Part shown: one piece after another, positions 2,481 through 21,904 of the stretch
Numbering within the stretch: the first letter of the stretch is position 1
Layout of the letters: the number at the start of each line of letters is the position of its first letter
NCBI GenBank assembly: GCA_964347835.1
Contig: CAYFZR010000082.1
Location: 1-32,000 of the forward strand
Origin: an uncultured archaeon
GTDB taxonomy: Archaea; CAYFZR01
DNA length: 32,000 nucleotides
Direction of reading: 5' to 3'
The notes under the pieces: model-generated
The model's input: only the letters and a program-made list of their open reading frames with translations
Database searches by the model: none
Told to the model about the DNA's origin: nothing
Made by a program: the position numbers and the translations under genes

Positions 2481-2569
2481 ATTAAGTCTTTTAGATAATG
2501 TGGTTTGGCCTTGGACTTATCCTCATAAATTGATTAAGTCTTCTAAGAGTGATCTTTCTGTAAAGACTT
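2481..2569. promoter_or_regulatory. repeated ATTAAGTCTT motif (two direct copies plus one inverted core) in divergent intergenic region
   Basis: ATTAAGTCTTTTAGA at 2481-2495 and ATTAAGTCTTCTAAGA at 2533-2548. The inverted core AAGACTT sits at 2563-2569. The region lies between the wHTH gene and the 2679 ORF. Confidence 0.3.
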
Positions 2570-2678
2570 TGATAAACCACCGATGTATATAATTTAATAA
2601 CAATAACCAAATTTTACCAATCAGCGTAGAGATAAACCTCTATTGGTTACGATAAGAAATGACGAAGAGCGCTAGTAT

Positions 2679-2954
2679 ATGCATTATGTTTTCACAAAAA
2701 AAGGCGATAATCTTGCTCTGATGAGGAGGAACAACGTCAAAAACACAATTGAATTTAAGATGAGTTACGAAACCTATGAAAAATTAATCTCTAAGCATGA
2801 TAAGGCTGAATATCTTAATACAATTAAAGAGATGATCAAACTATGGAAAAAAGGAGTAATAGAAGTTGATGCTCATTCATTTACGCAAAACATGGCTGTG
2901 TTCTTCATAAAACTTAGGGATACCGACTGGATTCTTAGATTCTTGACAGAATGA
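2679..2954 (+). CDS. hypothetical protein
   Basis: 91-aa ORF with protein-like composition and no recognised motif. Confidence 0.45.
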   Translation: MHYVFTKKGDNLALMRRNNVKNTIEFKMSYETYEKLISKHDKAEYLNTIKEMIKLWKKGVIEVDAHSFTQNMAVFFIKLRDTDWILRFLTE

Positions 2955-3092
2955 ATTAAAACTCTTGATGGGATATGAACATGCAGCTGTGGATTCTTTT
3001 ATCTCTTTGATCATATTTATGAAAATAAAATTTCCTAATTTTAAGCTACTCTACTCTCTCAAAAATCTTGTCTCGACTTTTGAGCTTCTTGG

Positions 3093-3509
3093 TCATTCAA
3101 TTAGCTTTCTCATTCTATTCAAAAATTTTTGAGCATTTACAAGAACGTCTTCAGCATTTTCTTTGAAGTAAGTATATCTATAATCAGCATTTTCTCTACT
3201 ACTCATCGCAGAAGAATAATATTCCAGATAAATATTTTTTAACTTGCCTTTTTTAACTAGGTCTTCAAGAACTACTTTAATAGCAAAATGTCTCCTCTCC
3301 CTATAGCCTAGAGAAAATAATACTGCCCTGGCAGCGTGAAACATAGAGAAATAACCCTTTATAATACACCATTTGAAGTCATTCTCTTCAAATGCACGCT
3401 TCGATCGATTTAAATCATATTCTGCTTCATTGAATTCTTTCTCAATAAGTATTGGATCGCGTTGAATTCTAATGAGAAAACCCTCATCCAAACATTGCTT
3501 AACGTCCAT
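3093..3509 (-). CDS. HEPN domain protein (toxin-like partner of adjacent nucleotidyltransferase)
   Basis: 138-aa all-helical protein resembling HEPN-domain proteins (AEYDLNRSKRAFEENDFKWCIIKGYFSMFHAARAVLFSLGY). Its start overlaps the stop of the upstream MNT-type gene by 1 nt. Confidence 0.75.
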   Translation of the reverse strand: MDVKQCLDEGFLIRIQRDPILIEKEFNEAEYDLNRSKRAFEENDFKWCIIKGYFSMFHAARAVLFSLGYRERRHFAIKVVLEDLVKKGKLKNIYLEYYSSAMSSRENADYRYTYFKENAEDVLVNAQKFLNRMRKLIE

Positions 3510-4066
3510 TATATCAGCTCTATTTTATCTCTCTCAACTCTTTCGTAGAAAGCAGGATCTTTTTCCGACATTTTAATCCATTCGTCCTCTGTAAATACGG
3601 TTGCCTTTAGTTGAATATTAAATTCATTTCTAAGAAGCATTAGCTCTTTTTCCACCTCTCTCTGTTTTATATTACCTATCATAAGTAAGTCCCAATCACT
3701 ATCTTCCACGTCTTCTCCCCTAGCCACAGAACCGTATAAATAAATTCTAACCTTCAATTTTTCTCTAAATTCTGTCAATTTGTAGATAGCAGGGTGTGAG
3801 AGGTTATAGGCAATTTTTAAATGTTTGACAAATGTGTTTTCCCTGTTTAGTTTTAAAAATTTCATTCTGCCCCTTCTTTTTAAAATTAGAAGATTTTCCT
3901 TGGATAATTCGTCTAAATATTTGTTAACTGCACCTAAGCTTAATTCAGTCTTTTCTTTGACTTGTTTTTCATAAAATTCTTGAGTAGGGTTTTCTAAAAA
4001 GAAAAGTAACAATCTCAACGCTGTACCGGATTCCCATATAACACTTTTTGATGAAATTGTTTTCAT
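3509..4066 (-). CDS. nucleotidyltransferase (MNT-type) with N-terminal winged-helix domain
   Basis: Carries the minimal nucleotidyltransferase motif LYGSVARGEDVEDSDWDLLMIG (GS...D-x-D). The N-terminal ~80 aa look like a wHTH (LSLGAVNKYLDELSKENLLILKRRGRMKF). Confidence 0.8.
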   Translation of the reverse strand: MKTISSKSVIWESGTALRLLLFFLENPTQEFYEKQVKEKTELSLGAVNKYLDELSKENLLILKRRGRMKFLKLNRENTFVKHLKIAYNLSHPAIYKLTEFREKLKVRIYLYGSVARGEDVEDSDWDLLMIGNIKQREVEKELMLLRNEFNIQLKATVFTEDEWIKMSEKDPAFYERVERDKIELI

Positions 4067-4142
4067 ATTAATGAAGTTGTTTTCATTTTCTTATAAATTT
4101 TTTTGTTTTTATCATCTTGTCAAAACTTTGCATTTATCTTTT

Positions 4143-4577
4143 CTAAGTCAAATCCGATCTCAGGTCTTTTACCTCTTTCTCTATACAAGGAATTTTCGAG
4201 GTATGTTCAAGCATCTTGTCCTGCTTATCAAGCATCTTTTCTGTATTTTCTCTAATATCTAAGATGGCAGGAATTCCTTTGTCTAATTGTTCTACCTGTA
4301 AAAAATGCATGTAGTCGATGACGCTCATTATATAACCTTCGTATTCTTCAAAGATTACTTCTGAAACCAATGCATGCTCAGGATAATTTTCCTCTGCAAA
4401 TTTTTTAAATTGCTCGGCTTTTTCTCCGTCGACATAAACTATAACAGCCTGTTTATCATTTTCTTTAATGTTGAAGGCATTGAATCTGTCTATTCCTAAT
4501 TCCAAAGCCTTTTTTAATAAAAAGACCCTGTAACCCACTCCATGTACCCTAGTGCCTAAGATCTTTATCTTCGGAAT
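4143..4577 (-). CDS. acylphosphatase-like domain protein with C-terminal helical extension
   Basis: The V-x-G-x-V-x-G-V-G-(F/Y)-R signature reads ILGTRVHGVGYRVF only if translation starts upstream of the track's GTG (4538). An in-frame ATT at 4575-4577 follows AGGTG (4584-4588) after a 6-nt spacer. See findings. Confidence 0.6.
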   Translation of the reverse strand: MPKIKILGTRVHGVGYRVFLLKKALELGIDRFNAFNIKENDKQAVIVYVDGEKAEQFKKFAEENYPEHALVSEVIFEEYEGYIMSVIDYMHFLQVEQLDKGIPAILDIRENTEKMLDKQDKMLEHTSKIPCIEKEVKDLRSDLT

Positions 4578-4733
4578 TTAAAACACCTAAATCCTGAGCA
4601 GAGATTAAAGTATTTATAACTTTATTTCTTCCCCGACAATATTTCCAGATGAGCTTGAGACAATTAGATTTTTTCTTAACGAACTGCTAAAAAACTTAAG
4701 GAAAAAATGAAGTATTCTATTCTTTAGATTTCT

Positions 4734-5171
4734 TCAAAATCGTCTTCTTTTCAGCCAAACTAACCCTGCTATGGGAACGGTTACCAGAGCAGGGAAGTAA
4801 GAGTCAGACCATATAAATCCGTGGGTTTCAAACGTAAAGAATGGATAAAAATATACGTTTATATTTCCAAATGGATAAAGGAAACTATCTAAAACTAAAT
4901 GGCTTAAAAAACCAACAGATATCAAGAGATAGGTATCTTTCCAGTCTTTAAAGAAGCTTGATAATAAAGCGCCTGATAAAAGCACGCCAATAATAGTATG
5001 AAAGGGTAAAAAGAAGTTTATCACCGCGGAATTATTATAAGAATGCGCAAACATAAAAAGTTTTGAAAGATCCGGGAGTACGGATCCAAGTATAACAGGT
5101 CTGACCCTTATGTTCAACAACACAGCGACGAGATACCCAGCGCATATATGGGTGATCCAATCAGGCATCAT
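4734..5171 (-). CDS. membrane-bound metal-dependent hydrolase-like protein (DUF457/YdjM-like)
   Basis: The N-terminus MMPDWITHICAGYL and the multiple TM helices with His/Asp residues (SHLVLDSF) are typical of the family. The ATG at 5169-5171 overlaps the upstream stop (ATGA). Confidence 0.6.
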   Translation of the reverse strand: MMPDWITHICAGYLVAVLLNIRVRPVILGSVLPDLSKLFMFAHSYNNSAVINFFLPFHTIIGVLLSGALLSSFFKDWKDTYLLISVGFLSHLVLDSFLYPFGNINVYFYPFFTFETHGFIWSDSYFPALVTVPIAGLVWLKRRRF

Positions 5172-5569
5172 GAAAACCTCCTGTTTTCTCTCCATTCCCT
5201 GATGAAAACTAAGAGAAGCAGAGGCAGGCTAAGAAAAGAGGAATATATAGGAAAATTCGGATAGTCGTGGATATGGTACCTCTGAACCATTAGTTTTCCC
5301 TCATTTACATAACCAGAGAAACTAACCTCTTGACCTTCTTGGAAGTTGGAATCGGTCTTTACGATCGCAGATTGATTGACGTATTTTGTGTGTACTTCAT
5401 AAACGTTAGATTCGAGTTTTTTACCGATAATAAAGTTGTTAAGATAATATTCTTTTCCTTCATAAGCAGATAGATCCAAAGGCTTATAAAGAGGATGTTT
5501 AAGAGCAAAAAAACAAAAAAGGATTATTAAAAGGAAGATTACTGTTCTAAAGAGCCATATTCTTTTCAT
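5168..5569 (-). CDS. hypothetical bitopic membrane protein with small beta-rich middle domain
   Basis: Has an N-terminal TM helix (LFRTVIFLLIILFCFFAL) and a C-terminal one (SSFLSLPLLLLVFI). It is translationally coupled to the downstream DUF457-like gene. Confidence 0.55.
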   Translation of the reverse strand: MKRIWLFRTVIFLLIILFCFFALKHPLYKPLDLSAYEGKEYYLNNFIIGKKLESNVYEVHTKYVNQSAIVKTDSNFQEGQEVSFSGYVNEGKLMVQRYHIHDYPNFPIYSSFLSLPLLLLVFIREWRENRRFS

Positions 5570-5716
5570 GGAAAAAACATCCCGAAATTACTATTTAATT
5601 TTTTTCAAAGATAATAAGCCTGATAATAGAATTCAAAGAATCTTTGAATTAAAAGCAGGATTTGATTTAGGAAATAGAATCGAAGAATTGCCAGAGAAGA
5701 TCGCAAATTTTAACGT

Positions 5717-5857
5717 TTATTTTCCTACCTTTACTTTAACTGCGCAGTTTGAACATATCCATACAATACTCTCGCCTCTATCTTCTTTTTTCGATATTCT
5801 CAATCTACCCTTTTCTTTTTGATCAAATGATGAGTTGCATATTTTACATTTCTTCAT
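5717..5857 (-). CDS. small zinc-ribbon protein, 46 aa
   Basis: Translates to MKKCKICNSSFDQKEKGRLRISKKEDRGESIVWICSNCAVKVKVGK, with CxxC...CxxC. AGGTG lies 5 nt upstream of the ATG. It competes with the implausible + ORF 5568-5822. Confidence 0.55.
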   Translation of the reverse strand: MKKCKICNSSFDQKEKGRLRISKKEDRGESIVWICSNCAVKVKVGK

Positions 5858-5903
5858 TTTAACACCTGCTGGAAATATTTAATCAAAGTCTCTAAATAAA
5901 TAT

Positions 5904-6632
5904 TTAGATGTCCGAGGATAATCCTACTAAACTTTTCATTGCCACAGATGCTTTCAATCGAAGAGAATAGTCTGCTATAGGAGAGATAGGCGTTTCTGAA
6001 GGATTTATTTCTATCAAAACTGCTCTGTTATTCTTTGCCATAATCGGCAGAGAAGCAGCGGGTTGTATCACAGCCGATGTGCCTATAACCATCATCACGT
6101 CACACCTGCTTGAGTGTAAGATACTCTGATTTAGCAGGAAAGGATCTAAAGATTCGCCAAACCAAACAACAGATGGTCTTAACATGCTATGACATACGTT
6201 GCATTTGGGAGGTATCTCCTTTAGGGGGGTTTCATAATTTTCAACTTCATTATTACACGACATGCATTTCATACGCCAGATATTTCCGTGAAGTTCTATA
6301 ATTTTTTTATTTCCGGCCCTTCTATGCAAGCCGTCTACGTTTTGAGTTATCAGCATCTTGAGAACATCTCTTTCTTCAAGCCACGCTAAAACCTTATGAG
6401 CATCGTTTGGACTTGCTCTTGCTATCAATGATCTTCGCCAATCATACCATTCCCATACCAAGGTTGGGTTTTTCTTAAAGGCTTGCAGCGTGGCTAACTC
6501 CTCCGGACGATATTCTTTCCACAAGCCATCTTTTCCTCTAAAAGTAGGAATACCGCTCTCCGCCGAAATGCCGGAGCCTGTTAAGGCTAACAGGTACTTC
6601 GATTTTGTGATTATATCTACTAACTCTTCCAT
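5904..6632 (-). CDS. cobB: NAD-dependent protein deacylase, Sir2 family
   Basis: GSGISAESGIPTFRG, QNVDGLH and the zinc-module CxxC...CxxC (CMSCNN...CNVC) are all present. Confidence 0.9.
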   Translation of the reverse strand: MEELVDIITKSKYLLALTGSGISAESGIPTFRGKDGLWKEYRPEELATLQAFKKNPTLVWEWYDWRRSLIARASPNDAHKVLAWLEERDVLKMLITQNVDGLHRRAGNKKIIELHGNIWRMKCMSCNNEVENYETPLKEIPPKCNVCHSMLRPSVVWFGESLDPFLLNQSILHSSRCDVMMVIGTSAVIQPAASLPIMAKNNRAVLIEINPSETPISPIADYSLRLKASVAMKSLVGLSSDI

Positions 6633-6698
6633 AATCTAATTTTAAATTTCTGAATATAAAAAGGAAAATATAAAAACTATGACTTCCGGTTGTGCGTT

Positions 6699-7913
6699 AT
6701 GACAGAAGATGGCTGGAAGCAAATATCCATACTCCTAGGAATCTTACTAATCGCATCGATCATATTACATCTAATTCCTAAAATTCCAGAAAGTAAACAA
6801 CCTCAGGTTGTTACTCAACCCCCTCCAGACTACTACACTCAAGCACCGGGTATTGACCTATCAAACCTTGATGAGAGTAGAAGCACTCTGGCAATAAGTG
6901 TGATGAATGAGATTGAATGCACTTGCGGATGCGGTCTCAGCATAGCAAAATGTAGGAACGAAGATCCAAGTTGTGTTGTGAGTATCGGGATTGGAAATAA
7001 TGTAGTAAGGTTTGCTGAGAAAGGATACAGTGAGAATGAAACCAAATCTGCAATAGTCAGTGGAAAAGTCCCTGAGATTAATGTGAGCGTGGATGACGAC
7101 CCCTTTAAAGGCCCAGAAGATGCACCCGTTACCATAGTAGAGTTCTCCGATTATCAGTGTCCTTACTGCAAGATATTCTTCGATCAAACATTTAATCATA
7201 TTCTTACGCTGTACGAGGGTAATGTAAAGTTCGTATACCGAGATTTTCCCCTAGGCTTTCATCAGTATGCTCAAAAAGCCGCTGAAGCAGCTGAATGCGC
7301 CGATGATCAGGGAAAGTTCTGGGAGTATCACGATAAATTATTCCAAAACCAAGAAACTTGGTCTTCCTTAGGTATTTCAGAGTTCAAAAGATACGCCGAA
7401 GAGGTGGGATTGAATAATGACGAATTTAATCGTTGTTTGGATAATGAAGAAAAAACAAGAGAAGTAAAAAAAGATCTTCAGGATGGAAGGTCTTATGGCG
7501 TTACAGGAACTCCTACTTTCTATATAAATGGTCGAAAACTAAGCGGCGCGGCTTCTTTTTCAAATTTTGTAAGAATAATTGAAACTGAGTTAAAAGAGAG
7601 CAATTCCATCGAATACGAACTTCCTGATTATGCTTACAAGAGTCAAAAACATTTAGAAAGTTATTTGATAGCCAGAAAAATGCCGGAAGTCTTAGATAAT
7701 TTTCCTTGTTACTGTGGTTGCGATAATTTAGGTCACAAAAGTCTTAAAGAATGTTTTATTGAAGAAGACGGAAGTTTTGAAGTACATGGGGCTTATTGTC
7801 AAGCCTGCATGGACGAAAGTTTGGATGTAAATAAATGGTACGGAGAAGGTTTGTCTTTTATTGAGATTAAAAATAGAATAGACGATAAGTATGGATCAGA
7901 AAAGGCTAATTAA
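6699..7913 (+). CDS. membrane-anchored DsbA-family thiol:disulfide oxidoreductase fused to Cys-rich modules (incl. PCYCGC motif)
   Basis: From the N-terminus: a TM helix, a CTCGCGLSIAKC...C cluster, a DsbA/thioredoxin core (VEFSDYQCPYCKIFF ... GTPTFYINGRKL), then a C-terminal PCYCGCDNLGH...C...CQAC module. The ATG at 6699 is preferred over the track's TTG at 6690. Confidence 0.8.
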   Translation: MTEDGWKQISILLGILLIASIILHLIPKIPESKQPQVVTQPPPDYYTQAPGIDLSNLDESRSTLAISVMNEIECTCGCGLSIAKCRNEDPSCVVSIGIGNNVVRFAEKGYSENETKSAIVSGKVPEINVSVDDDPFKGPEDAPVTIVEFSDYQCPYCKIFFDQTFNHILTLYEGNVKFVYRDFPLGFHQYAQKAAEAAECADDQGKFWEYHDKLFQNQETWSSLGISEFKRYAEEVGLNNDEFNRCLDNEEKTREVKKDLQDGRSYGVTGTPTFYINGRKLSGAASFSNFVRIIETELKESNSIEYELPDYAYKSQKHLESYLIARKMPEVLDNFPCYCGCDNLGHKSLKECFIEEDGSFEVHGAYCQACMDESLDVNKWYGEGLSFIEIKNRIDDKYGSEKAN

Positions 7914-8824
7914 ATCCTTCTAGAAATGAAAAATCCGATTATTGCCAAGAAAATGATTAAAAAACCGAAATATACTGTTTGAACCCTTCTTCTCTCTCTC
8001 TGCTCCTCAATAAATTTTAATTCATTTTGAACATCTTCTAATTCCTTTTTTGATTTTAGTGCCAAATTAACGCTTTTTTCATAACTCCCATTAAAGTAAG
8101 CGATTTTCGCCTTCCTTGTAAGATTCTCAGCAGCATAAAATTTTTGTTCTAAGTATAGTACATTAGAAATCAAACATTCGTCTTTCTTTGCATTTTCTAT
8201 CGCCTTAAATGTTTCATTTATCGAATGAGAAGCATCTAATATGGCTTTTTGAGGATGGATAAAATTCACACTTGCATATGTAAAGCCCTGCCAGTCGATT
8301 ATGCAGCGACCAAAACGCTTTGATGTTTCTCCATCATTTTTGCTTACTACTTGATAGTACTTAGGAAGTACAACGTGTAGAATACCTGGGTGGATCAGTG
8401 GTTTCAAGACGCCTTTATCCGTTTTTATTCTAAACAAATCGCTTGAGAAGTTAAAATAATCATAACTTGGTTGAGAATATTTTAATTCAAAAAAACCTAC
8501 TGTTCCGGATACCCTTTCTTTATAAAGATAGTGATAGTAGGGTACCTTAATCCAACCATCCTCGGTGTATGAGTCTAAAATTTTGCTAAAATCACTCACA
8601 AATATATTATATACATCAGGATTGCTTTTTATCCATATCTCCTTTACCTCATAATCTTTTGTATCGTTCGTGTTTTTGTAATTGTAACCTACGCCAAAGT
8701 ACTCCTTTATCTTTGTCTCATTTTCGATTGACACACTAACTTTCCATCCCTCTCCCATATAGAACGGATTTCCAAGGGATGCAACTATCAAAAAGACGAC
8801 TGGTATCGAATTTAGAAATCTCAA
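7910..8824 (-). CDS. hypothetical exported protein with C-terminal membrane anchor
   Basis: Has an N-terminal signal-like helix and a C-terminal TM (VYFGFLIIFLAIIGFFI). It overlaps the truD stop by 4 nt. Confidence 0.55.
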   Translation of the reverse strand: MRFLNSIPVVFLIVASLGNPFYMGEGWKVSVSIENETKIKEYFGVGYNYKNTNDTKDYEVKEIWIKSNPDVYNIFVSDFSKILDSYTEDGWIKVPYYHYLYKERVSGTVGFFELKYSQPSYDYFNFSSDLFRIKTDKGVLKPLIHPGILHVVLPKYYQVVSKNDGETSKRFGRCIIDWQGFTYASVNFIHPQKAILDASHSINETFKAIENAKKDECLISNVLYLEQKFYAAENLTRKAKIAYFNGSYEKSVNLALKSKKELEDVQNELKFIEEQRERRRVQTVYFGFLIIFLAIIGFFISRRI

Positions 8825-10014
8825 CTTACCCTCTCCATCAGTTCCCTAAGAAAGGATGTAGCATACCCACCCTTAGAGAGATCAAATCTTATTTCTACTG
8901 TATTATTGTTTATTTCGTATTCAAAGCCTTTGATTTTTAAAATCAATTCTCTTCTCAAACCCGCTGAAGATAGTTCTGGCATACTCTTTATTAGGAAGTT
9001 TTCTCTTTTCAAACCCTCTTTTTCTATGATTTCTCTTTCTATCTCCCCCATTCTTCCACCTGCGAGTAAGACATCATATCCAAACAATATTCCGGTGGGT
9101 AAGTTATCTTTTAAGATGTCCCCTTCTACAAAGTCGACTATAGGTAATTTTTCATCCAATCTCCTACTTAAAATTAGATTGAAAAGATATGACTGGTAAG
9201 CATGAACAAAAAGCCTTAATAGAGGTCTTGGAAATTTTCTTAGAGCACCTATAAAGTCTCTTGGATGTTTGGAGAGGTGCTCTAAAAGGATTCTTTCGTA
9301 TCTTAGATGTTTTGGAAATATTTTTAGAGATTCTTTGAAGTCCTTGGTCTCATCGTACATCTTTCTGGCTTCTATGGCCACTTCTGATTCAGTATCGAAA
9401 GGGTATCCCAAGTACCAGTCTATAGCCGATGAAAAATTGCCCTTAACTATCATCTCTCCAACAATATGGGTACTGGGTCTCCTTGAGCCAAATCTTTGAA
9501 TACCAAAGAAGTTTGGTACTCCGCCAATTTCCTTAATTTTATCTTCAAAATGCTTTAGTTTTTCTTTAGGATCTTCAAAGCAATTTATGTTTATTTTAAA
9601 TCTGTTACCTGAAAGACTCCCAATTTTTATTGGCTCTTCGGTCTTCTGAGGATTTAATATCTCAGTATTGGGCGCCCTTAAACTCAATAAATCGGAAGGC
9701 TCAACTTCGTATGCTGTAACGAGTTGAAAGGTGACCGCTCTTTTATCTTTATTTCCAGCAAATCGAAACCTCTTCTTGCTTATTTTAAGTCTTTTAGATA
9801 TTTCCCTAATGGCTTGTTGAGTATCTATGTTTTCTTTTTTAAGTACAAAGGCAGTATATTCTCCTTGTCCTGAAAAGTCTAGTTCTATGACTGGTTTATC
9901 ATAAACCAACTCCATTACGACGAAGTCTGAGCACTTTTCTCTTATATTTCCTTTCAAATCGCACCCAATGAGATGATTCTTCATTCCTACAAATTCGTCG
10001 TACATAAGAATCAC
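8821..10014 (-). CDS. truD: tRNA pseudouridine synthase TruD/Pus7 family
   Basis: Contains the catalytic-Asp motif FRFAGNKDKRAVTFQ, plus NFFGIQRFG and an overall TruD-like sequence. The GTG start overlaps the pth2 stop (GTGA). Confidence 0.85.
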   Translation of the reverse strand: MILMYDEFVGMKNHLIGCDLKGNIREKCSDFVVMELVYDKPVIELDFSGQGEYTAFVLKKENIDTQQAIREISKRLKISKKRFRFAGNKDKRAVTFQLVTAYEVEPSDLLSLRAPNTEILNPQKTEEPIKIGSLSGNRFKININCFEDPKEKLKHFEDKIKEIGGVPNFFGIQRFGSRRPSTHIVGEMIVKGNFSSAIDWYLGYPFDTESEVAIEARKMYDETKDFKESLKIFPKHLRYERILLEHLSKHPRDFIGALRKFPRPLLRLFVHAYQSYLFNLILSRRLDEKLPIVDFVEGDILKDNLPTGILFGYDVLLAGGRMGEIEREIIEKEGLKRENFLIKSMPELSSAGLRRELILKIKGFEYEINNNTVEIRFDLSKGGYATSFLRELMERVS

Positions 10015-12567: not shown

Positions 12568-13110
12568 ATGTTATCATATTTCTGGCCCACACCTGATATG
12601 AATATATTCGTAGCGGTTTCCATAATGCTTGCTCTTGCGCCGATAAGCATGATGGTCTTCGCTATTATCAGAGGTTTCGAAGATACCATATTGTGCATGG
12701 AATGCCAGCAGTGTGTCGCAGGCTGTCCGGTAAAAAGGGCACTCGGAGAAGAGTACTATGGCCCAAAAAACCTTATGACTCTAGCAAGAGCCAATCATAA
12801 GATTAAAAGCGCTGAAGGTAGAATTTTTTCGTGTACTTCTTGTGTTAGATGTACCGAAACCTGTCCAAGAGCGCTTTATGTTAAGCACACTATGGATAAG
12901 TACAGGGGTGTTTTATTCAAAGAAAACTTGGGTGTGATGGACGGACATAAAAAACTCGTGGAGAACGTTAGAAAATACAGAAATGTTTTGGATCCGGACA
13001 GAAAGAAACCTCCTTTAGATTCTGTTGTGGAAAAAGTAAAAGAACAAGTTAGCAAACAAGAAATGGCCTTAGGATTAGTGGAGATTCCTGTCGTAGAAGA
13101 AGCAAAGTAG
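12568..13110 (+). CDS. HdrC-like 2x[4Fe-4S] protein with N-terminal transmembrane helix
   Basis: Two CxxCxxCxxxCP motifs (CMECQQCVAGCP and CTSCVRCTETCP) follow a hydrophobic N-terminus (IFVAVSIMLALAPISMMVFAII). Confidence 0.75.
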   Translation: MLSYFWPTPDMNIFVAVSIMLALAPISMMVFAIIRGFEDTILCMECQQCVAGCPVKRALGEEYYGPKNLMTLARANHKIKSAEGRIFSCTSCVRCTETCPRALYVKHTMDKYRGVLFKENLGVMDGHKKLVENVRKYRNVLDPDRKKPPLDSVVEKVKEQVSKQEMALGLVEIPVVEEAK

Positions 13111-13908
13111 GTGGGGCGATTGGCGACTTTGCAAAAAATCCCAGAAAAAGTAATTTTCTTTGAAGGTTGCGTGACCTCGAGAAGAATGCACCACCTACGT
13201 TTTGCAATTCGTTTTTTGCTGGAAAAATTTGGTATTGACTATATTACACTTGACCCAAAAGAGCAGTGTTGCGGATCTCCCATATTCAGAGCCGGGGCGG
13301 TAGATGTTGCCGAAAGACAATTGCTCTATAACCTTAGAGAAATTGAGCAGTCTGGTAGAAATGTCGTGGTATCTGCCTGCCCGGGATGCGGATCTACATT
13401 AAAATCGGATGAGGCTGAGAAGAGAGATATCGAAGTAGTACATATAATGGAGATATTCATGAAATTAGCGGAGGAAGGAAGACTCTTTAACAGCCCCGAT
13501 TTAAGAAATCTAGATGCTACTGTAACAGCCCATTTTCCATGTCATTTGATTAGAGGCATGGGTGTTGATTGTTTTAAAGGATTCAAAGAAATATTCGCCC
13601 AAATGCCCGGCGTAGAATACATTGAATTAGAGGAGGCAAATTCTTGCTGTGGCGCCGGAGGTGGAGTAAGGGCATCTCAGATCGAGTTGGCAAAAAAAAT
13701 CAGAGAAAGAAAGATCGATTTTATTAAAGAAACAGAGGCGCAAATTTGCGTGACGATCTGTCCTTTCTGCGAGATCCATATCGGAGAAGGTTTAAAGGAA
13801 GCCGAACTGCCTATAAGGATTATGTCCTTACCATTCCTTCTTGCTTTGCTCCACAGTGATTTTAGAACAAAGATAGATGAATTAGTGGAAAAAGAAAAGA
13901 GTGCGTGA
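13111..13908 (+). CDS. HdrB-like protein with two CCG domains
   Basis: Two C...CCG...CxxC units: EGC...QCCGSP...ACPGCG and FPCH...SCCGAGGG...ICPFCE. The GTG start immediately follows the upstream stop. Confidence 0.8.
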   Translation: MGRLATLQKIPEKVIFFEGCVTSRRMHHLRFAIRFLLEKFGIDYITLDPKEQCCGSPIFRAGAVDVAERQLLYNLREIEQSGRNVVVSACPGCGSTLKSDEAEKRDIEVVHIMEIFMKLAEEGRLFNSPDLRNLDATVTAHFPCHLIRGMGVDCFKGFKEIFAQMPGVEYIELEEANSCCGAGGGVRASQIELAKKIRERKIDFIKETEAQICVTICPFCEIHIGEGLKEAELPIRIMSLPFLLALLHSDFRTKIDELVEKEKSA

Positions 13909-13912
13909 TCGA

Positions 13913-14272
13913 ATGGAGTCATTGATATATATGTTATTTCTTGTGCTTTCATTGCCTTTTGCTTATTACTACATAAAAACAACTATATTTCCCAATCATG
14001 TTGGAAAAATAAAAAAATTCGAAGGCTACGGAAAAATGTCAGAATGCGAAGTAACCTGTAATACTTCAATCCGAGACATATCAGATGGTAAAATGTCAAT
14101 AAAAATATTGGTTGAACTTCCCGATGGAGAGGAAATAAGGTGTGAAATAAGCCCATGTAACGTATGTTTAGAGAAGTTGAAGCAAGGAGATACGGTAGGC
14201 GTTACAAAACTAGGATCAAGATATATCGCCCAGCCGCTATTATTTAAAAGGGGGTATAACGAGTGCCAGTAA
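13913..14272 (+). CDS. small single-TM protein with Cys-rich beta domain
   Basis: A TM helix (LIYMLFLVLSLPFAYYYI) is followed by CEVTC...CEISPCNVC. The alternative GTG start at 13901 overlaps the HdrB-like stop. The 3' end overlaps the next gene by 10 nt. Confidence 0.55.
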   Translation: MESLIYMLFLVLSLPFAYYYIKTTIFPNHVGKIKKFEGYGKMSECEVTCNTSIRDISDGKMSIKILVELPDGEEIRCEISPCNVCLEKLKQGDTVGVTKLGSRYIAQPLLFKRGYNECQ

Positions 14273-14940
14273 CAATAATAGGCTATATAGCATTGACATT
14301 GTTTTTTGGCATAATATTGGCATCCCTTATGGGAGTAATCCCACAGTCCAGATTACCGATTCAGTCTGCTCTGATTGTGGCAACACTCGTGATAGTATTA
14401 CTCGCCTTCGTTGGTAATTTTATAGGGTATACAGTCGAACTGATTTACCCCATCGATCTTCTGGGACAGATTATAATTCATCCTATTACGGCTTTAATGG
14501 CTGGCTTTTTTGTCGCGGGGGCGCTAGAGGCTTCTGGCGGATTCGAAGCAGCCGCTGATTTATTAGATAGAATGGCTAAGACAAAACTGGGACTTCCGGG
14601 AACCGCTTGCATACTGGCCAACATGCCTACCATAATTAGTATGCCATGCGGTAGGATATTGGGCGCGGCCTTGATGCCTGCAGCACTATACTTTGGATGG
14701 ATTTTGGCAGAGAAAACAGGTAAAAAGGAGTTAATCGGAGTGCTTGTATTTTCATTCATTGTTAACGCAGCAGCATCTTGCGGACCCTCTCCGCTCGGAG
14801 GTATTGGTATGATCGGAGAGGGTATGATAGCAATTCCTCTAACCTCTCTCCAAGATCCTCAACAGGCAGGAATAATGTTAGCAACAGGAACATGCGCATT
14901 GGTGATGAGATTCGTGACACCATTGCTACCCGCTGAATAG
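14263..14940 (+). CDS. polytopic membrane protein, paralog A (conserved MPCGR and ASCGPSPLGG motifs)
   Basis: Multi-TM ORF clearly paralogous to 14952-15680. Shared blocks are HPIxAxxAGFxxAGAL, MPCGRI(L/I)GAA and FIVNAAASCGPSPLGG(I/V)GxIGEG. The GTG start follows GGGGGT. Confidence 0.7.
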   Translation: MPVTIIGYIALTLFFGIILASLMGVIPQSRLPIQSALIVATLVIVLLAFVGNFIGYTVELIYPIDLLGQIIIHPITALMAGFFVAGALEASGGFEAAADLLDRMAKTKLGLPGTACILANMPTIISMPCGRILGAALMPAALYFGWILAEKTGKKELIGVLVFSFIVNAAASCGPSPLGGIGMIGEGMIAIPLTSLQDPQQAGIMLATGTCALVMRFVTPLLPAE

Positions 14941-14951
14941 GAGGGTGAAAT

Positions 14952-15680
14952 ATGGAAGAAAGATTAAAAATCGGATACATTTCATTTTTCTTCTTCATGA
15001 TAGTCTTAGCCGCTGCCATCATACTCTACAGTAAAATGGGGGTGAAAGTGCCTCCAATTCAGACGATTCTCATCTTCATAGCAATAGTAATAATGCTGAT
15101 AAGCAGAGCGAGAATAGAAGATCTTCTTGCAGGAGTAATCTTACATCCAATAATGGCAATGTCTGCTGGTTTCTTGATAGCAGGGGCTTTGGGACTCGCA
15201 GGAGGTTTTGATGCACTACTAGACTTATGCTGGAGGATTGCGGGGCTCGTGGACACCGTTTTTTCCCCATTACAAGGGCTTGGAATATCTCTCTTAGGAT
15301 TAGAGAAAGGTATATCCCTTGGATTGCCCTTCGTGGCCGTTATTATAGTTAACATACCCACCATCACTCCTATGCCCTGTGGAAGGATAATAGGCGCTGC
15401 AGTTATTCCTGGAGTATATTATTTTGCAGAAGCAGTAGCAGGAGCAACCGGAAACACTTTGGCATTACCGGTGTTGGTTGCAGCCTTTATTGTAAACGCT
15501 GCAGCATCTTGCGGACCCTCTCCGCTCGGAGGAGTAGGAGGTATAGGTGAGGGCAACCTGGGAGTAGAAATCGGCTCATCAGGACCATCACAAGAGACCG
15601 GTATAATTATTGCAACAGGGGTTACGGCTCTTGTTATAGCATTCGTGACGGGATATGCCCTGATTCCATATCTAAAATAG
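14952..15680 (+). CDS. polytopic membrane protein, paralog B (conserved MPCGR and ASCGPSPLGG motifs)
   Basis: Same motif set as paralog A, with a ~25-aa insertion after the first conserved block. GGAGGGTG lies upstream of the ATG. Confidence 0.7.
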   Translation: MEERLKIGYISFFFFMIVLAAAIILYSKMGVKVPPIQTILIFIAIVIMLISRARIEDLLAGVILHPIMAMSAGFLIAGALGLAGGFDALLDLCWRIAGLVDTVFSPLQGLGISLLGLEKGISLGLPFVAVIIVNIPTITPMPCGRIIGAAVIPGVYYFAEAVAGATGNTLALPVLVAAFIVNAAASCGPSPLGGVGGIGEGNLGVEIGSSGPSQETGIIIATGVTALVIAFVTGYALIPYLK

Positions 15681-15691
15681 GAGGTAATAAA

Positions 15692-15835
15692 ATGAATCTC
15701 CCTCTCTTAGCAACAATGGTTGGAGCAGGAACTCTGACAGGTATAATGATAAATATAGCGTTGGGCTACAGCCCATTAAATATCGGCGGAATACTAGGCG
15801 GCGCGGTAACTGGATTGCTAATGTTCATACTCTAG
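15692..15835 (+). CDS. 47-aa Gly-rich transmembrane peptide
   Basis: Translates to MNLPLLATMVGAGTLTGIMINIALGYSPLNIGGILGGAVTGLLMFIL. GGAGGT lies 5 nt upstream. It fits exactly into the 11/9-nt gaps of the operon and is below the ORF-track cutoff. Confidence 0.45.
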   Translation: MNLPLLATMVGAGTLTGIMINIALGYSPLNIGGILGGAVTGLLMFIL

Positions 15836-15844
15836 GGTGTTGCT

Positions 15845-16576
15845 ATGGAAATCGAGCCGATTAGGAGAATATCTCAGTTAGTAGTGCTATTCGTAGCCCT
15901 CGTAAGTCTAGGTGCCGTATGCTCTAGAGATCCTTTCTTCATGCTACAAACGATATTTGCAAGGGGTAGCGTACTTCCTACGTTAATTCTTGCGTCCCTT
16001 GGGGGCCTCATCGTTTTTTCATTGATATTTGGAAGAGCGTTTTGTAGTTGGGTATGTCCGTTTGGAACAATACTCGATATATTGAATGGAATAACCTCCA
16101 AGAAACACAAAATACCTGAATTTTTAGAATACAGGTCCTTAAAATATTCTGTACTCGGAGGTTTTTTGATAACTGCTTTCGTATATGGATATACTGCTTT
16201 CTGCACTGTCTGTCCAGCAGGAGTATTTTTTAGATATGTAGAAGTTGCTACTGTTGCACCTGTATTTCCACTCATGCTCTTGGTGGCTGTATTTGTTTTT
16301 GCAATATTCTATCATGGCAGGGCTTGGTGCAGATATCTCTGTCCACTGGGTGCTTTTTTATCTCTAGTTAGTAAATTCAGCTTTACAAAGTTAAAAGTTG
16401 ATAATGAAAAATGTAGAGCATGCCTCTTGTGCCAAAGGACTTGTGCTATGGATTTGTTGGTAGTGGAGGATAGTATATGGAAGAAAAAAGACGCGGTCCC
16501 TCCAGCAGAATGCATAAGATGTGGCGACTGCATCAACGTTTGCCCTGCCGGGGCAATAGAATTTGACATGTTTTAG
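15845..16576 (+). CDS. NapH/MauN-type membrane polyferredoxin (4Fe-4S binding)
   Basis: TM helices carry the paired CxxCP motifs FCSWVCPFG and WCRYLCPLG. The C-terminal soluble 2x[4Fe-4S] region reads CRACLLCQRTC and CIRCGDCINVCP. Confidence 0.8.
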   Translation: MEIEPIRRISQLVVLFVALVSLGAVCSRDPFFMLQTIFARGSVLPTLILASLGGLIVFSLIFGRAFCSWVCPFGTILDILNGITSKKHKIPEFLEYRSLKYSVLGGFLITAFVYGYTAFCTVCPAGVFFRYVEVATVAPVFPLMLLVAVFVFAIFYHGRAWCRYLCPLGAFLSLVSKFSFTKLKVDNEKCRACLLCQRTCAMDLLVVEDSIWKKKDAVPPAECIRCGDCINVCPAGAIEFDMF

Positions 16577-17217: not shown

Positions 17218-17294
17218 AATGAGTGACATCTTATAATATCCATCAAGGGTAAATTTTATATTATGTTAATACTCTATCCCTAAAGAGGGATGGT

Positions 17295-17993
17295 ATGAGA
17301 CGACAATCAATAGGTTTTATTATCATAATGATTCTCTTGTTCATAGTTGCCATACCCACTATCTCGGGGGAGGAGCCACAGAGTCCTGAAGAAGTATCCT
17401 ACACGAAGTCTTTTTGTTATGGATGTCATGATGTGGCTCACAATGTTCATGTCGCAGTTGTAGTAGATTGCGCACAATGTCACGGAAATCTGCCAAGAGT
17501 ATTTATTCCTGAATGTGTAGCGTGCCACTCTCCGCCAATCCACAGGATTCACGAAGCTTCCGCTAGAGAAGACTGTCAAAAGTGTCATGGCGAAATAGCA
17601 GCCATTCACGCTGGTTTAGGAGAAGTGATATGCTCCAGATGTCACGGAACAGATGTGGCGAAGATACACGGAGGAGAGACTAGTTGCGAAAAATGTCATG
17701 AAACCGTTCCAAACATCGTAAAACCTCACGCAATGGAGGGAGAGATAGTCTGCCAGGCCTGCCACGAAGATAACCTCATTACAATACATGAACTCATTGC
17801 TACTGGCAATGAAAAATGTTATAAGTGTCATGGAACAGTCCACTTCATACACGCGAAAACTAGATTGGAAAAAGAAGGCAAGAAAGGACCCAGTTGCGAA
17901 AATTGTCACGGATCAGTTGAGATTGGCATACCCGAATGTACTCAGTGTCACAGACCTGAAGTCGTACACACTCTCAGCGCACTCATAGGTTAG
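17295..17993 (+). CDS. decahaem c-type cytochrome with N-terminal signal/anchor helix
   Basis: Ten CxxCH motifs counted in 232 aa: CYGCH, CAQCH, CVACH, CQKCH, CSRCH, CEKCH, CQACH, CYKCH, CENCH, CTQCH. There are 11 further His residues. The hydrophobic N-terminus is IGFIIIMILLFIVAIPTISG. Confidence 0.85.
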   Translation: MRRQSIGFIIIMILLFIVAIPTISGEEPQSPEEVSYTKSFCYGCHDVAHNVHVAVVVDCAQCHGNLPRVFIPECVACHSPPIHRIHEASAREDCQKCHGEIAAIHAGLGEVICSRCHGTDVAKIHGGETSCEKCHETVPNIVKPHAMEGEIVCQACHEDNLITIHELIATGNEKCYKCHGTVHFIHAKTRLEKEGKKGPSCENCHGSVEIGIPECTQCHRPEVVHTLSALIG

Positions 17994-18019
17994 GGTTGAT
18001 CCCCTTTTATTTTTTAAAA

Positions 18020-19009
18020 ATGAAAAAGGAAAAAATTAGCTTCACAAATCTGGAAAAAGAGGTAATAGAGATAGGTCTTTGTTCCTATTGTGGAACATGC
18101 ATGGGCGTTTGTCCGCCCAAATGCATAGGGATCGAAGATGAGACCATCTCCCTCGTAGGTGAATGTAAAGAATGTGGCGTATGCCTTTCAAAGTGTCCGA
18201 GGTTTGATCTAAGGGTAGATCTGGAAGATCTTGGACCCTATTATGATGAATACATAGGCCCGTATTCAAAAATCCCCTGTGCTAAATCTAAGAGTGATGA
18301 TATCATTAATGTTTGCCAAGATGGAGGTGTAACAACCTCTCTACTTACCTATTTATGCGATTTAGGCGATTCAATAGTCGCTGTTGACAGGGATGAAGAA
18401 TGGAAACCCATACCCATACTTACCAAAGATAGGAATGATCTAATTAAAGCTGCTGGCTCAAAATATTCTGTTGCAAGTCCAAATAGAGTTTTAAGCGATG
18501 TCAAGGATTCAGTATCTGTAGTAGGTACTCCATGCCAAATTGAGGGTCTAAGGAATATAATTTTGAACCCCAAAGGTGCAAAGAAGTTGGCTTCTAAATT
18601 AAATATTTTGATAGGTTTCTATTGCATGGAAAATTTTGTTTATTCAAAATTAAAGAGATTTATATTAAAAAATGGAATTGATATAAAAAATGTGAGAAAG
18701 TTCGATATTAAAAAGGGAAAATTCCTTATATATGAAAGAGAAACCCATGAGTTTCCACTTTCAGATTTAGAGGGCTGTATTTCTAGGGGATGTCACTTTT
18801 GTAGGGACTTTACTGCCATGATGGCAGATATTTCGGTGGGTAGTTTGGGATCTCCATCAGAATATAACTCAGTTATTATTAGGACAGAAAAAGGACTAAA
18901 CTTATGGAAGAACTGTGTAAAGGAAGGATACATAGAAGAAAGTGAAACTGAGGTAAATTTAAAACCTATAAGAAAGTTATCTCGGAAAAAAAGGGAGCGA
19001 AAAATATAA
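18020..19009 (+). CDS. F420-dependent oxidoreductase beta/FpoF-FrhB family subunit with N-terminal 2x[4Fe-4S]
   Basis: CSYCGTCMGVCP and CKECGVCLSKCP are followed by an FrhB/FdhB-like body (CQDGGVTTSLL ... VGTPCQIEGLR ... FYCMENF ... CHFCRDFTAMMADISVGS). The ATG at 18020 is preferred over the track's TTG at 17996. Confidence 0.8.
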   Translation: MKKEKISFTNLEKEVIEIGLCSYCGTCMGVCPPKCIGIEDETISLVGECKECGVCLSKCPRFDLRVDLEDLGPYYDEYIGPYSKIPCAKSKSDDIINVCQDGGVTTSLLTYLCDLGDSIVAVDRDEEWKPIPILTKDRNDLIKAAGSKYSVASPNRVLSDVKDSVSVVGTPCQIEGLRNIILNPKGAKKLASKLNILIGFYCMENFVYSKLKRFILKNGIDIKNVRKFDIKKGKFLIYERETHEFPLSDLEGCISRGCHFCRDFTAMMADISVGSLGSPSEYNSVIIRTEKGLNLWKNCVKEGYIEESETEVNLKPIRKLSRKKRERKI

Positions 19010-19042: not shown

Positions 19043-19879
19043 ATGGAGATGGTAGTAAAAGTAGGCGTAATTAAGTGTGGAGCTATTGCTACTTCCGCGA
19101 TGTTAGACCTTCTTTTAGACGAAAGAGCGGATAGAAAGGACATTTCCACTAAAGTAGTCGGTAGCGGTGCGAAGATGGGTCCAGAAGATGCTGAAGAAGC
19201 TGTAAATAAACTTTTAGAATTCGATCCTGACATGGTTATATACATTGGACCGAATCCAACAGTGGCTGGACCAAAAAAGGCTAGAGAACTGCTATCTGAG
19301 TCTGGAAAGCCTTCTTTGATTATTGGTGATGCTCCCGGTGTAAAAGCAAAAGAGGATATGGAGAAGGAGGGTCTTGGATACCTACTTATAAGGGCAGATT
19401 CTATGATTGGAGCCCGGAGAGAATTTCTTGATCCAACGGAGATGGCAATATTTAACGGAGATCTCATCAAAGTGCTCGCATCTACTGGAGCCTTCAATAT
19501 AGTTGTAGAGGCCATTGACAGCATGATAGAAGCCGTAAAGGAAGGTAAAGAGGTAGAACTCCCAAGGATCGTCATTACAAGAGACAAGGCAGTTGAAGCG
19601 GCTAACTTCACCAATCCATACGCAAAAACCAAGGCGATGGCATCCTATGAGATTGCTACAAAGGTAGCGGACCTGGATGTGGAGGGTTGTTTCGTTGTAC
19701 AAGATCCCAACAAATATATTCCAATTGTATCAGCAGGTCACGAGATGTTAAGGATTGCTAGTATTCTGGCAGAAGAAGCAAGAGAAATAGAAAAATATGG
19801 GGATACTGTATTCAGAAGACCTCATTTAGCAGAAGGTAAGTTAGTACAAAAGATAGAACTTATGAAAAAACCCGATTAA
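19043..19879 (+). CDS. mtd: F420-dependent methylenetetrahydromethanopterin dehydrogenase
   Basis: The N-terminus VKVGVIKCGAIATSAMLDLLLDERADRKDISTKVVGSGAKMGPE and the ~278-aa length match the Mtd family closely. Confidence 0.9.
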   Translation: MEMVVKVGVIKCGAIATSAMLDLLLDERADRKDISTKVVGSGAKMGPEDAEEAVNKLLEFDPDMVIYIGPNPTVAGPKKARELLSESGKPSLIIGDAPGVKAKEDMEKEGLGYLLIRADSMIGARREFLDPTEMAIFNGDLIKVLASTGAFNIVVEAIDSMIEAVKEGKEVELPRIVITRDKAVEAANFTNPYAKTKAMASYEIATKVADLDVEGCFVVQDPNKYIPIVSAGHEMLRIASILAEEAREIEKYGDTVFRRPHLAEGKLVQKIELMKKPD

Positions 19880-20534: not shown

Positions 20535-21095
20535 ATGCGTAAATCCGCTGTCGAAATATATGACAGGCTACAGAATATGGCTGACGACATCAAACTTAGG
20601 AACAAACAGGGAGAGTTAGAAGACTGGAAAGAAGTAGCCGCTTTCATTGATACACTTAATAAATATGCGGATTCACTTCCTCCGAGTGTATATGCGAGAA
20701 TAAATGCAGGGCTTCCAGAAATCATTGATAAGATGAGAGAGGATGCGAGAAAAGAATTAAAGGCTCTAAGGGAAGAAAGCAGAGAACATCTTTCCCAATA
20801 CGAGAAGGGCGATATATCAGAACTGGAGTTTGAAGACATATTAAACAGCATTCTTGATAGGAGAGAAAAAATTACAGAAGGATTCTTAGCCGGAGTAGCG
20901 TCAGAATACCGTGAAATTGAAGAAGACGTAAATGTCTATAGAGAGAGACTAAAAAGGAAACTTTACGAAAGGAGAGAGGTCATAACAGATTTTTTGAGAT
21001 TTGCCGAAGATATAGAAGAATACGTTAGCGGAGAAGAAAGATACATAGTCGCAGCCATTTTAACTTTGGTGAGTAAGCTAGAGGAACGGAAATGA
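20535..21095 (+). CDS. hypothetical helical/coiled-coil protein, translationally coupled to NifH-like gene
   Basis: 186-aa E/R/K-rich helical ORF with AGGGTG upstream. Its stop overlaps the next start (ATGA at 21092). Confidence 0.55.
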   Translation: MRKSAVEIYDRLQNMADDIKLRNKQGELEDWKEVAAFIDTLNKYADSLPPSVYARINAGLPEIIDKMREDARKELKALREESREHLSQYEKGDISELEFEDILNSILDRREKITEGFLAGVASEYREIEEDVNVYRERLKRKLYERREVITDFLRFAEDIEEYVSGEERYIVAAILTLVSKLEERK

Positions 21096-21904
21096 AGGAT
21101 ATCCTTAGGATAGCCGTATACGGAAAAGGAGGGATAGGTAAATCAACTATATCCTCCAATCTGGCTGTCTCTTTTTCTCTTTTAAATAAATCTACGCTTC
21201 TCATGGGATGCGATCCAAAAAGAGATACAACCAGAAATCTTCTCTCTGGTAGATTGATACCAACAGTCTTGGAGAGTATACGTGAAAACAACAGTTTTAA
21301 CCTCGAGAAAGTAATTCATAAAGGTTATAACGACGTTTTATGTGTAGAATCAGGCGGTCCCGAGCCCGGAGTCGGCTGTGCGGGAAGAGGGATAATATTG
21401 TCTATCGAAACTTTGGAGAAACTAGGCTTGTTCGATTTAGTTGATACAGTAATATTCGATGTACTGGGAGATGTTGTTTGCGGCGGATTCGCAATGCCCA
21501 TCAGAAAAGGTTACGCTAACTATGTTTATATTGTTATTTCTGGAGAATTCATGTCTCTATACGCTGCAAACAATATTTGTAAGGGTATTAAGCGTTTTGC
21601 AGATAGAAAAGGAGCGCTATTAGGTGGGTTGATATATAACTCGCGAGATGTTCCAAATGGTCTAGAAATATCAAAAGAATTCGCGAATAAGATTGGCACA
21701 GATATTTTAGGAGAAATTCCAAGGAGTAACTTAATACTCAAAGGAGATGTCCAGAGAAAAACTGTATTTGAGGCATTTCCTGATTCAGATATAGTAGAAA
21801 GGTTTGTGGAGTTGACCCATAACATAGTAAGATCCTCACCTACAACCCCAAAACCTCTTTCTTATGAAGAACTAGAAGACCTTGCTATTCAAACTCTATT
21901 GTAG
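21092..21904 (+). CDS. cfbC: NifH/BchL-family ATPase, likely Ni-sirohydrochlorin a,c-diamide reductive cyclase component CfbC
   Basis: The P-loop is [10 protein letters not shown]. The cluster ligands are CAGRG and VCGGFAMP. There are no nifD/K neighbours and the context is methanogen-type. No cfbD is adjacent, so the CfbC assignment is an inference. Confidence 0.75.

Follow-up and report, generated by a model that had tools for sequence, protein, structure and literature searches.

The decahaem cytochrome and its modules

The window analysed here, a stretch of 32,000 nucleotides from contig CAYFZR010000082.1 of an uncultured deep-sea archaeon, carries on its forward strand a gene of 232 codons with an ATG start, whose product is a c-type cytochrome with ten CxxCH haem-binding motifs. 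The gene and the parts of its product are located as follows, the parts being predictions made from the translation.

17295..17993, forward strand: coding sequence of the decahaem c-type cytochrome, 232 amino acids plus stop (open reading frame and translation, Pfam, sister-species homologues)
17295..17366, forward strand: predicted general secretory (Sec) signal peptide, residues 1-24 or 1-25, composed of MRRQS, an 18-residue hydrophobic core and P-T-I-S(-G) (hydrophobicity, alignment)
17415..17552, forward strand: predicted N-terminal trihaem module, residues 41-86 (CYGCH..H..H, CAQCH, IPECVACH..H..H), from alignment to the C-terminal module
17574..17789, forward strand: predicted central tetrahaem stretch, residues 94-165, four CxxCH each with a His 7-10 residues on
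17817..17969, forward strand: predicted C-terminal trihaem module, residues 175-225 (CYKCH..H..H, CENCH, IPECTQCH..H), from alignment to the N-terminal module

The ten CxxCH motifs start at residues 41, 59, 74, 94, 113, 131, 153, 175, 201 and 215, and each of the 20 Cys residues of the protein lies within one of them. Out of 21 His residues, 11 fall outside the motifs (49, 52, 83, 86, 105, 125, 145, 165, 183, 186 and 225), and past the signal peptide only 1 Met is present. A preliminary description of this gene had reported ten motifs in 232 aa and 11 additional His residues, enough for bis-His ligation at every haem, and had quoted five strings of the protein, CQKCHGEIAAIH among them; the motif count, the His count and all five strings are found in the translation, and 10 of the 11 additional His residues are conserved in homologues. 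Its unit of 25-30 aa per haem had to be abandoned, since the motif starts are in fact 14-26 residues apart (mean ~19).

Above the Pfam cut-offs, only cytochrome domains are recognised, namely Cytochrome_C7 (PF14522, 49.7 bits against a cut-off of 24.8) and Cytochrome_c3_2 (PF14537, 44.9 bits against 25), and no other domain is fused, in agreement with the initial view of a compact protein without large additional domains. The NCBIfam scan at E <= 1 returned only CctA, paired_CXXCH and HmcA, all far under their cut-offs. The predicted apoprotein mass is 22.6 kDa and that of the holoprotein ~28.8 kDa, with an isoelectric point of 6.0. Haem density amounts to 23.2 aa per haem for the precursor and ~20.8 for the predicted 208-aa mature chain, as compared to 24.4 in two 12-haem paralogues of the same genome. 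The protein is hence at the dense end of the range and not unique, as homologous giant cytochromes reach down to 20.1 aa per haem. The GC content at third codon positions (0.378) lies inside the range of the neighbouring genes, and recent horizontal transfer is not indicated.

The sole hydrophobic segment had been placed at the N-terminus, and a 19-residue Kyte-Doolittle scan agrees, with a peak of 2.56 at residues 7-25 and values below about 0.75 in the rest of the protein. The N-terminus consists of MRRQS, the 18-residue hydrophobic core and P-T-I-S-G-E-E. Export by the twin-arginine translocation pathway was rejected, as the twin Arg of the window protein corresponds to RK and KR in the two sister-species orthologues. 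In agreement with the -3/-1 rule, both of these positions are occupied by small residues at the conserved I-P-(T/A)-I-S site, which in distant homologues is matched by canonical AxA|E sites such as AHA|E and VQA|E; E26 is invariant in an alignment of six sequences. Hydrophobic cores of comparable length also precede the AxA sites of other cytochromes encoded by this genome, and cleavage of the signal peptide is likely on these grounds.

Growth of the protein by internal duplication had also been proposed. A repeat is indeed present; the significant unit, however, is a trihaem module of ~50 aa found at both ends, not a single-haem unit of 25-30 aa. Residues 41-90 (CYGCH-x3-H-x2-H ... CAQCHG ... 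IPECVACH ... H-x2-H) align to residues 175-229 (CYKCHG-x2-H-x2-H ... CENCHG ... IPECTQCH ... H) with a score of 106, whereas plain shuffles give 27 +/- 5.6 and shuffles with every C and H fixed give 58.8 +/- 10 (z ~4.7), only 1 in 1000 of which reaches 106. The central stretch resembles the C-terminal module weakly (6/1000 shuffles), and its comparison with the N-terminal module is not significant (74/1000 shuffles). On the basis of the similarity between the two ends, the ten haems appear to be laid out as 3+4+3 with a duplicated trihaem module, and the protein ends 7 residues beyond H225.

Conservation and the family of small archaeal cytochromes

In a word-indexed search of 5.8 billion proteins only two close relatives were found, 79% and 65% identical and both from one metagenome-assembled genome (MAG) labelled Candidatus Hydrothermarchaeota (GCA_046760505.1), followed by proteins of 308-321 aa with 31-33% identity. 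A profile search widened the family to 53 clusters, and a HMMER scan of 1.84 billion representatives returned ~10 full-length representatives together with many giant cytochromes of 1,000-3,600 aa, each matched by the profile 10-25 times. Within the family, hmmsearch E-values range from 1e-52 to 1e-118. All ten CxxCH motifs are conserved in the alignments of 6 and of 53 sequences, down to ~28% identity, so that the motifs are not a matter of chance and the gene is confirmed to encode a real, conserved protein; the preliminary description would have been contradicted by their loss in homologues. In the same alignments ten distal His residues are conserved (49, 52, 83, 86, 105, 125, 165 with a one-column offset, 183, 186 and 225), H145 of the central stretch being the only non-conserved extra His and unique to the window protein, and the ten-haem core holds no conserved Met. 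Because ten conserved extra His residues are available for ten haems and no Met is conserved, all ten haems would be bis-His ligated. Judged by its profile matches, the inferred ligation and the export and maturation features, the protein is assigned to the class III (c3/c7-type) multihaem c-type cytochromes.

That the CxxCH motifs might instead bind zinc or iron-sulfur clusters in a Cys-rich protein of the cytoplasm or membrane is barely conceivable. Weak sub-threshold Pfam matches to the DnaJ zinc-finger (22.5 bits against a cut-off of 32.7) and to Trm112p would speak for such a protein. They are countered by a His after each Cys pair in 53/53 homologues, by the signal peptide, by cytochrome families above their Pfam cut-offs and by the complete cytochrome c maturation (Ccm) system of the genome.

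For the relatives with 28-36% identity, over 82-99% of the query, the sources that carry a name are Candidatus Methanoperedens and archaea labelled as ANME-2 (anaerobic methanotrophic archaea, group 2) cluster, Methanosarcinales and Euryarchaeota. Like the window protein, they have an N-terminal signal peptide, and they share with it a collinear ten-haem core. Beyond this core, 47 of the 50 distant homologues carry one further CxxCH, the 11th, then a linker rich in T/P/E, and finally a PGF-CTERM or its SGF/TGF variant with a membrane helix and a basic tail behind it; the remaining 3/50 stop after haem 11. In the window protein and its two sister-species homologues, in contrast, all of these additions, from the 11th motif to the PGF-CTERM anchor, are missing. 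On the tree these three short proteins group together as sister to the others on a long branch, with 100% support in the Shimodaira-Hasegawa-like approximate likelihood ratio test, and in a tree without a fixed root both loss and gain of the tail are possible. The window protein can thus be described, from the alignments, as a tail-less ten-haem version of the small-cytochrome family known from ANME-2 and Methanoperedens. The earlier contrast with the giant cytochromes of ANME archaea is correct in that no domains are fused, but outside the genus its closest kin, which share the ten-haem core, are themselves small cytochromes of ANME-2 and Methanoperedens. The family was found in 25 of the 41 sampled genomes of the family to which the Methanoperedens genome belongs, and it was not found in 59 other archaeal genomes sampled. 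The small 11-haem members of ANME-2 and Methanoperedens are biochemically uncharacterised.

Comparison with better-known multihaem proteins reveals likeness at the level of haem motifs. GSU1996 of Geobacter sulfurreducens has been proposed to serve as a periplasmic wire or capacitor and contains one His-Met haem per domain. This dodecahaem 'nanowire' of four c7-type trihaem domains (PDB 3ov0, 3ouq; ~26 aa per haem) is secreted, without other domains and built of concatenated c7-like haem modules, as is the window protein, but its profile matches are weak (E 4.5e-5 for a fragment, to 4e-3), the likeness is at motif level only, and the ligands of the window protein appear to be all His in a 3+4+3 layout. 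The MtrA/DmsE decahaem proteins of bacterial porin-cytochrome conduits likewise hold ten bis-His haems in a small elongated protein and serve extracellular electron transfer; they differ in motif spacing, the MtrB-type barrel and outer membrane have no counterpart in archaea, and the NCBIfam decahaem family models did not match the window protein at E <= 1. Among solved structures, the PDB sequence searches gave generic multihaem matches and none within the protein's own family. The best profile matches were obtained with the 16-haem HmcA of Desulfovibrio (PDB 2e84, 5.9e-9) and with OmcZ (7lq5, 2e-5; 8d9m, 4e-5), both class III-type multihaem proteins like the window protein, yet these matches are partial (~70-110 residues), driven by c3-like haem motifs and not accompanied by a common overall architecture. 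Weaker matches to NrfB, NrfH and STC are partial and at motif level.

Since the protein is small, secreted, free of an anchor and very haem-dense, and resembles OmcZ in the weak and partial manner just described, a subunit of a polymerising extracellular nanowire, comparable to OmcS, OmcE and OmcZ of Geobacter or to archaeal cytochrome filaments, was also considered; this role is highly improbable. Among these nanowire subunits the OmcZ match spans ~70 residues only and is no better than those to HmcA, GSU1996 or NrfB. The ten conserved distal His residues suffice for ten haems, so no ligand is needed from a neighbouring subunit, most relatives are lipid-anchored via PGF-CTERM and ill-suited to a released filament, and the structure models were not usable.

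Host genome, maturation and further multihaem proteins

The host genome comprises 2.09 Mb in 88 contigs with a GC content of 37.4% and is rated 100% complete. Its lineage carries the label Hydrothermarchaeota, and its GTDB phylum holds two species only, namely the present genome and its sister. The preliminary description had referred to methanogen-type archaea, in which multihaem cytochromes are uncommon and linked to extracellular or interspecies electron transfer; McrA was not found in the genome, nor was a NuoH/FpoH homologue, and the organism is an Mcr-less archaeon with tetrahydromethanopterin (H4MPT) and F420 genes, not a methanogen or ANME archaeon. Multihaem cytochromes have already been reported in Hydrothermarchaeota, with up to 10 motifs in MAGs from Guaymas and up to 67 in MAGs from Juan de Fuca, and extracellular electron transfer through them has been proposed (PMC6759336, PMC6775978).

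A genome without a cytochrome c maturation system would have undermined the assignment as a cytochrome, and in fact ccmABCE, ccmF and ccmH are all present. The genes of Ccm system I for the ABC ATPase CcmA, CcmB, CcmC and CcmE are consecutive on contig C9, and contig C32 encodes CcmF (637 aa), CcmH and a weak DsbD-like membrane protein. Within the locus region 5000-13000 of C32, ccmF (genes 3534-5968 within that region) overlaps the ccmH homologue by 4 bases, the latter scoring 70.7 bits. CcmH has been described as missing from most archaea except Methanoperedens, Ferroglobus and Geoglobus (Chadwick et al. 2022, PMC9012536). In the window itself, positions 6690-7913 (forward strand) encode a membrane-anchored protein with a DsbA/thioredoxin fold fused to a PCYCGC domain (PF13798, 64 bits), which may be an extracytoplasmic thiol-disulfide factor relevant to cytochrome maturation.

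The genome is rich in cytochromes, with ~20 open reading frames containing at least 2 CxxCH, among them an 18-haem protein truncated where its contig ends, a tandem pair of 12-haem proteins, and 9- and 8-haem proteins; several of the multihaem proteins carry C-terminal anchors. The 12-haem paralogues (C5:7567-8448 and 8704-9582, forward strand; ~293 aa) have N-terminal anchors and are followed by a 5-haem protein with a C-terminal helix, forming another dense cytochrome cluster. Two 8-haem cytochromes end with C-G-P-T, a hydrophobic helix and a basic tail resembling the CGP-CTERM signal (TIGR04288, 18 bits against a 21-bit cut-off), and these could be anchored acceptors of electrons. Proteins with such tails, the 8-haem cytochromes and two others, are encoded at C14:407-1849 (reverse strand), C45:437-1585 (forward strand) and C32 near 81930-83404 (forward strand). 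The genome contains two genes of the exosortase family (C71, C33), but PGF-CTERM tails were not found in it, and the window protein lacks a C-terminal tail altogether.

As a membrane electron donor, the cluster on contig C52 is plausible, since it encodes a 6-haem and a 4-haem cytochrome, a four-cluster Fer4_11 (4Fe-4S) protein and NrfD fused to FAD_binding_4. The cluster lies in region C52:33000-40537 (genes at 2532-7426 within it), and its last-named protein is an unusual 868-aa fusion of an NrfD membrane domain with a cytoplasmic FAD_binding_4 domain, through which electrons of a flavin dehydrogenase in the cytoplasm could reach periplasmic cytochromes directly. As for quinone biosynthesis, MqnA/D were not found in the genome, an MqnC-like match lies just below and a MenA-like match just above the cut-off, and given these borderline matches no conclusion on the absence of quinones was drawn.

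Gene neighbourhood and the proposed path of electrons

The signals flanking the cytochrome gene were located by comparison with the sister species.

17254-17261, forward strand: putative promoter, TATA-like TTTTATAT, in a block conserved in the sister species
17285-17289, forward strand: putative ribosome-binding site GAGGG, conserved in the sister species
18005..18015, forward strand: T-run TTTTATTTTTT straight after the cytochrome stop, T8 in the sister species

The block CAAGGGTAA(A/G)TTTTATATTATGTTA and GAGGG are kept between the two species, whereas the flanking intergenic DNA diverges, and the cytochrome gene would hence have a putative archaeal promoter and ribosome-binding site of its own. 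The T-run may serve as an archaeal terminator that separates the cytochrome gene from the next one. On the 5' side, genes for an HdrC-like and an HdrB-like protein, three unassigned genes, a gene for a NapH/MauN-family membrane ferredoxin (140 bits) and the gene for TFE-alpha precede the cytochrome gene; on the 3' side an FrhB-like gene and then mtd follow, both co-directional with the cytochrome gene, with gaps of 26 and 33 nt. This gene order is identical in the sister species, within one genus only. The start of the FrhB-like gene is probably the ATG at 18020, which gives 329 aa as in the sister species, instead of the longest-frame start at 17996, and that of mtd is probably the second ATG at 19049 with a well-placed GGAGG, not 19043. 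Co-transcription of the cytochrome gene with the FrhB-like gene and mtd is uncertain because of the conserved T-run after the stop and because no ribosome-binding site was seen for the FrhB-like gene. The cytochrome is thus tied only weakly to its FrhB-like, Mtd and NapH-like neighbours.

The FrhB-like protein has the architecture of FpoF, with an N-terminal 2x[4Fe-4S] domain and an FrhB core, and both FrhB-family genes of the genome (C82 and C16:1427-2503) are orphans of the FpoF type. Its assignment as FqoF/FpoF of a classical Fqo/Fpo complex was rejected, as the genome is without a NuoH/FpoH homologue. Under these circumstances the three co-directional genes could be taken as one unit, in which the FrhB-like protein would oxidise the F420H2 generated by Mtd in oxidative H4MPT-dependent one-carbon metabolism and pass electrons to the decahaem protein, no Fpo/Fqo complex being available to receive them. 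Such an F420-linked outlet is quite improbable, as synteny within one genus is weak evidence and as the T-run and the lack of a ribosome-binding site make co-transcription uncertain. Besides, the cytochrome is extracytoplasmic, while the FrhB-like protein and Mtd are cytoplasmic with no membrane link in the unit, and an FrhB-like or Mtd neighbour occurs in none of ~9 homologue contexts. An extended version, regarded as very doubtful, would bring in the upstream genes as well: electrons would pass from Mtd via F420H2 to the adjacent FpoF-like protein, further to the upstream Hdr/NapH-like membrane complex and then to the decahaem protein as the outer end of an undescribed route that exports F420H2 electrons without an Fpo/Fqo/Nuo-type complex. 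If true, this would couple oxidative H4MPT-dependent one-carbon metabolism to extracellular electron transfer in an Mcr-less GTDB phylum of two species.

Homologues of the cytochrome gene are found in differing surroundings. In one clade (L018, L030, L031) a gene for a 273-aa cytochrome b (Ni_hydr_CYTB) lies directly upstream, which fits the published description of Mco, the methanophenazine:cytochrome c oxidoreductase proposed for ANME-2a/b, where the gene after that of a VhtC-like cytochrome b encodes a cytochrome with 7-11 haems (Chadwick et al. 2022, PMC9012536). At the window locus no VhtC-like cytochrome b is adjacent, and no match to PF01292 (Ni_hydr_CYTB) was obtained anywhere in the genome. 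In another clade (L017, L023) modules with NrfD, Fer4_11 and molybdopterin proteins flank the homologue gene, and in Methanoperedens (L021) a NapH-like gene adjoins it; no redox neighbour is present at L022, L035/36, L037/38 and the second sister-species copy L008. The NapH-like proteins of the window and of Methanoperedens are full-length homologues (26% identity, E 1e-21). This neighbour is kept in only 3 of 26 Methanoperedens-family loci, and two more (L043, ~1384-1461; L044, ~1379-1456) hold a remnant beside the cytochrome gene, the last 26 codons of the NapH-like gene, which suggests decay of that neighbour. A general coupling of NapH and the cytochrome was not retained on this account; the pairing is specific to one subclade and dispensable.

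These data bear on a membrane-proximal entry role, in which an uncleaved N-terminal helix would anchor the decahaem protein to the cytoplasmic membrane as a subunit of a quinol (or direct transmembrane):cytochrome c oxidoreductase, in the manner of CymA/NapC or the multihaem partner in Mco; it would then work with the NapH-like/Hdr-like membrane complex whose genes lie immediately upstream (12568-16576). The length of the hydrophobic core (18 residues) and the NapH/MauN-family gene, which closes an HdrC/HdrB-like membrane operon and lies two genes before the cytochrome gene, are consistent with this role, as is the full-length NapH-like homologue next to a family member in Methanoperedens, and pairs of NapH and a multihaem cytochrome have been proposed as quinol oxidisers of ANME archaea (PMC9012536). 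Nevertheless, an entry cytochrome is unlikely: the TFE-alpha gene lies between the NapH-like gene and the cytochrome gene, and the latter is preceded by a conserved TATA box of its own; the NapH-like neighbour is rarely retained in the Methanoperedens family; the alignment of the conserved T/A-I-S site with AxA sites speaks for cleavage; and the second copy of the sister species stands without a redox neighbour.

The explanation that we favour, with somewhat more confidence than doubt, is that the protein is a Sec-exported class III decahaem cytochrome acting most likely as a soluble electron relay towards the cell surface. Since it has neither a C-terminal anchor nor a fused domain, it would most likely be soluble or loosely attached. 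Weighing against this, an uncleaved N-terminal anchor with the 18-residue hydrophobic core is possible, and the homologue contexts vary, with 4 of ~9 lacking a redox neighbour and no specific partner singled out. AlphaFold2 without haems also gave poor models, with a pLDDT (predicted local distance difference test score) of 39.4 with 6 aligned sequences and 52.5 with 53, both unusable, and Foldseek against the PDB with the better model returned nothing below E = 4.9; in view of these models haem packing and wire geometry are not claimed. The variable contexts fit an electron carrier of general use outside the cytoplasm, able to dock to different membrane modules.

According to the proposed mechanism, the cytochrome would be matured outside the cytoplasmic membrane by Ccm system I of the genome, and its bis-His haems would be typical of low-potential class III (c3/c7-type) cytochromes. 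Located in the space that separates the cell surface from the cytoplasmic membrane, the relay would serve as a short molecular wire or capacitor, receiving electrons from membrane oxidoreductases, e.g. the NrfCD-multihaem cluster of C52 or NapH-type proteins, and delivering them to those multihaem cytochromes of the organism that are anchored and very large, with extracellular metal oxides or minerals, or a partner cell, as candidate end acceptors. The mature protein, predicted at ~208 aa, ~29 kDa with haems and ~21 residues per haem, would offer a convenient minimal target for expression, spectroscopy and structure determination of archaeal multihaem 'wires'. As an anchor-free version consisting of the ten-haem core, it extends a family so far seen in ANME-2/Methanoperedens methane oxidisers to a deep-branching Mcr-less H4MPT lineage, and together with ~20 multihaem genes, a full Ccm system with CcmH and the NrfCD-multihaem module it adds to the genomic case for extracellular respiration. 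The kind of system is a known one.

Further downstream in the window, positions 21092-21904 (forward strand) encode a NifH-family protein, which scores 349.5 bits against the NifH cut-off of 394.35 and 346.8 bits against the CfbC cut-off of 402; this NifH/CfbC-like protein is encoded in a genome without McrA.

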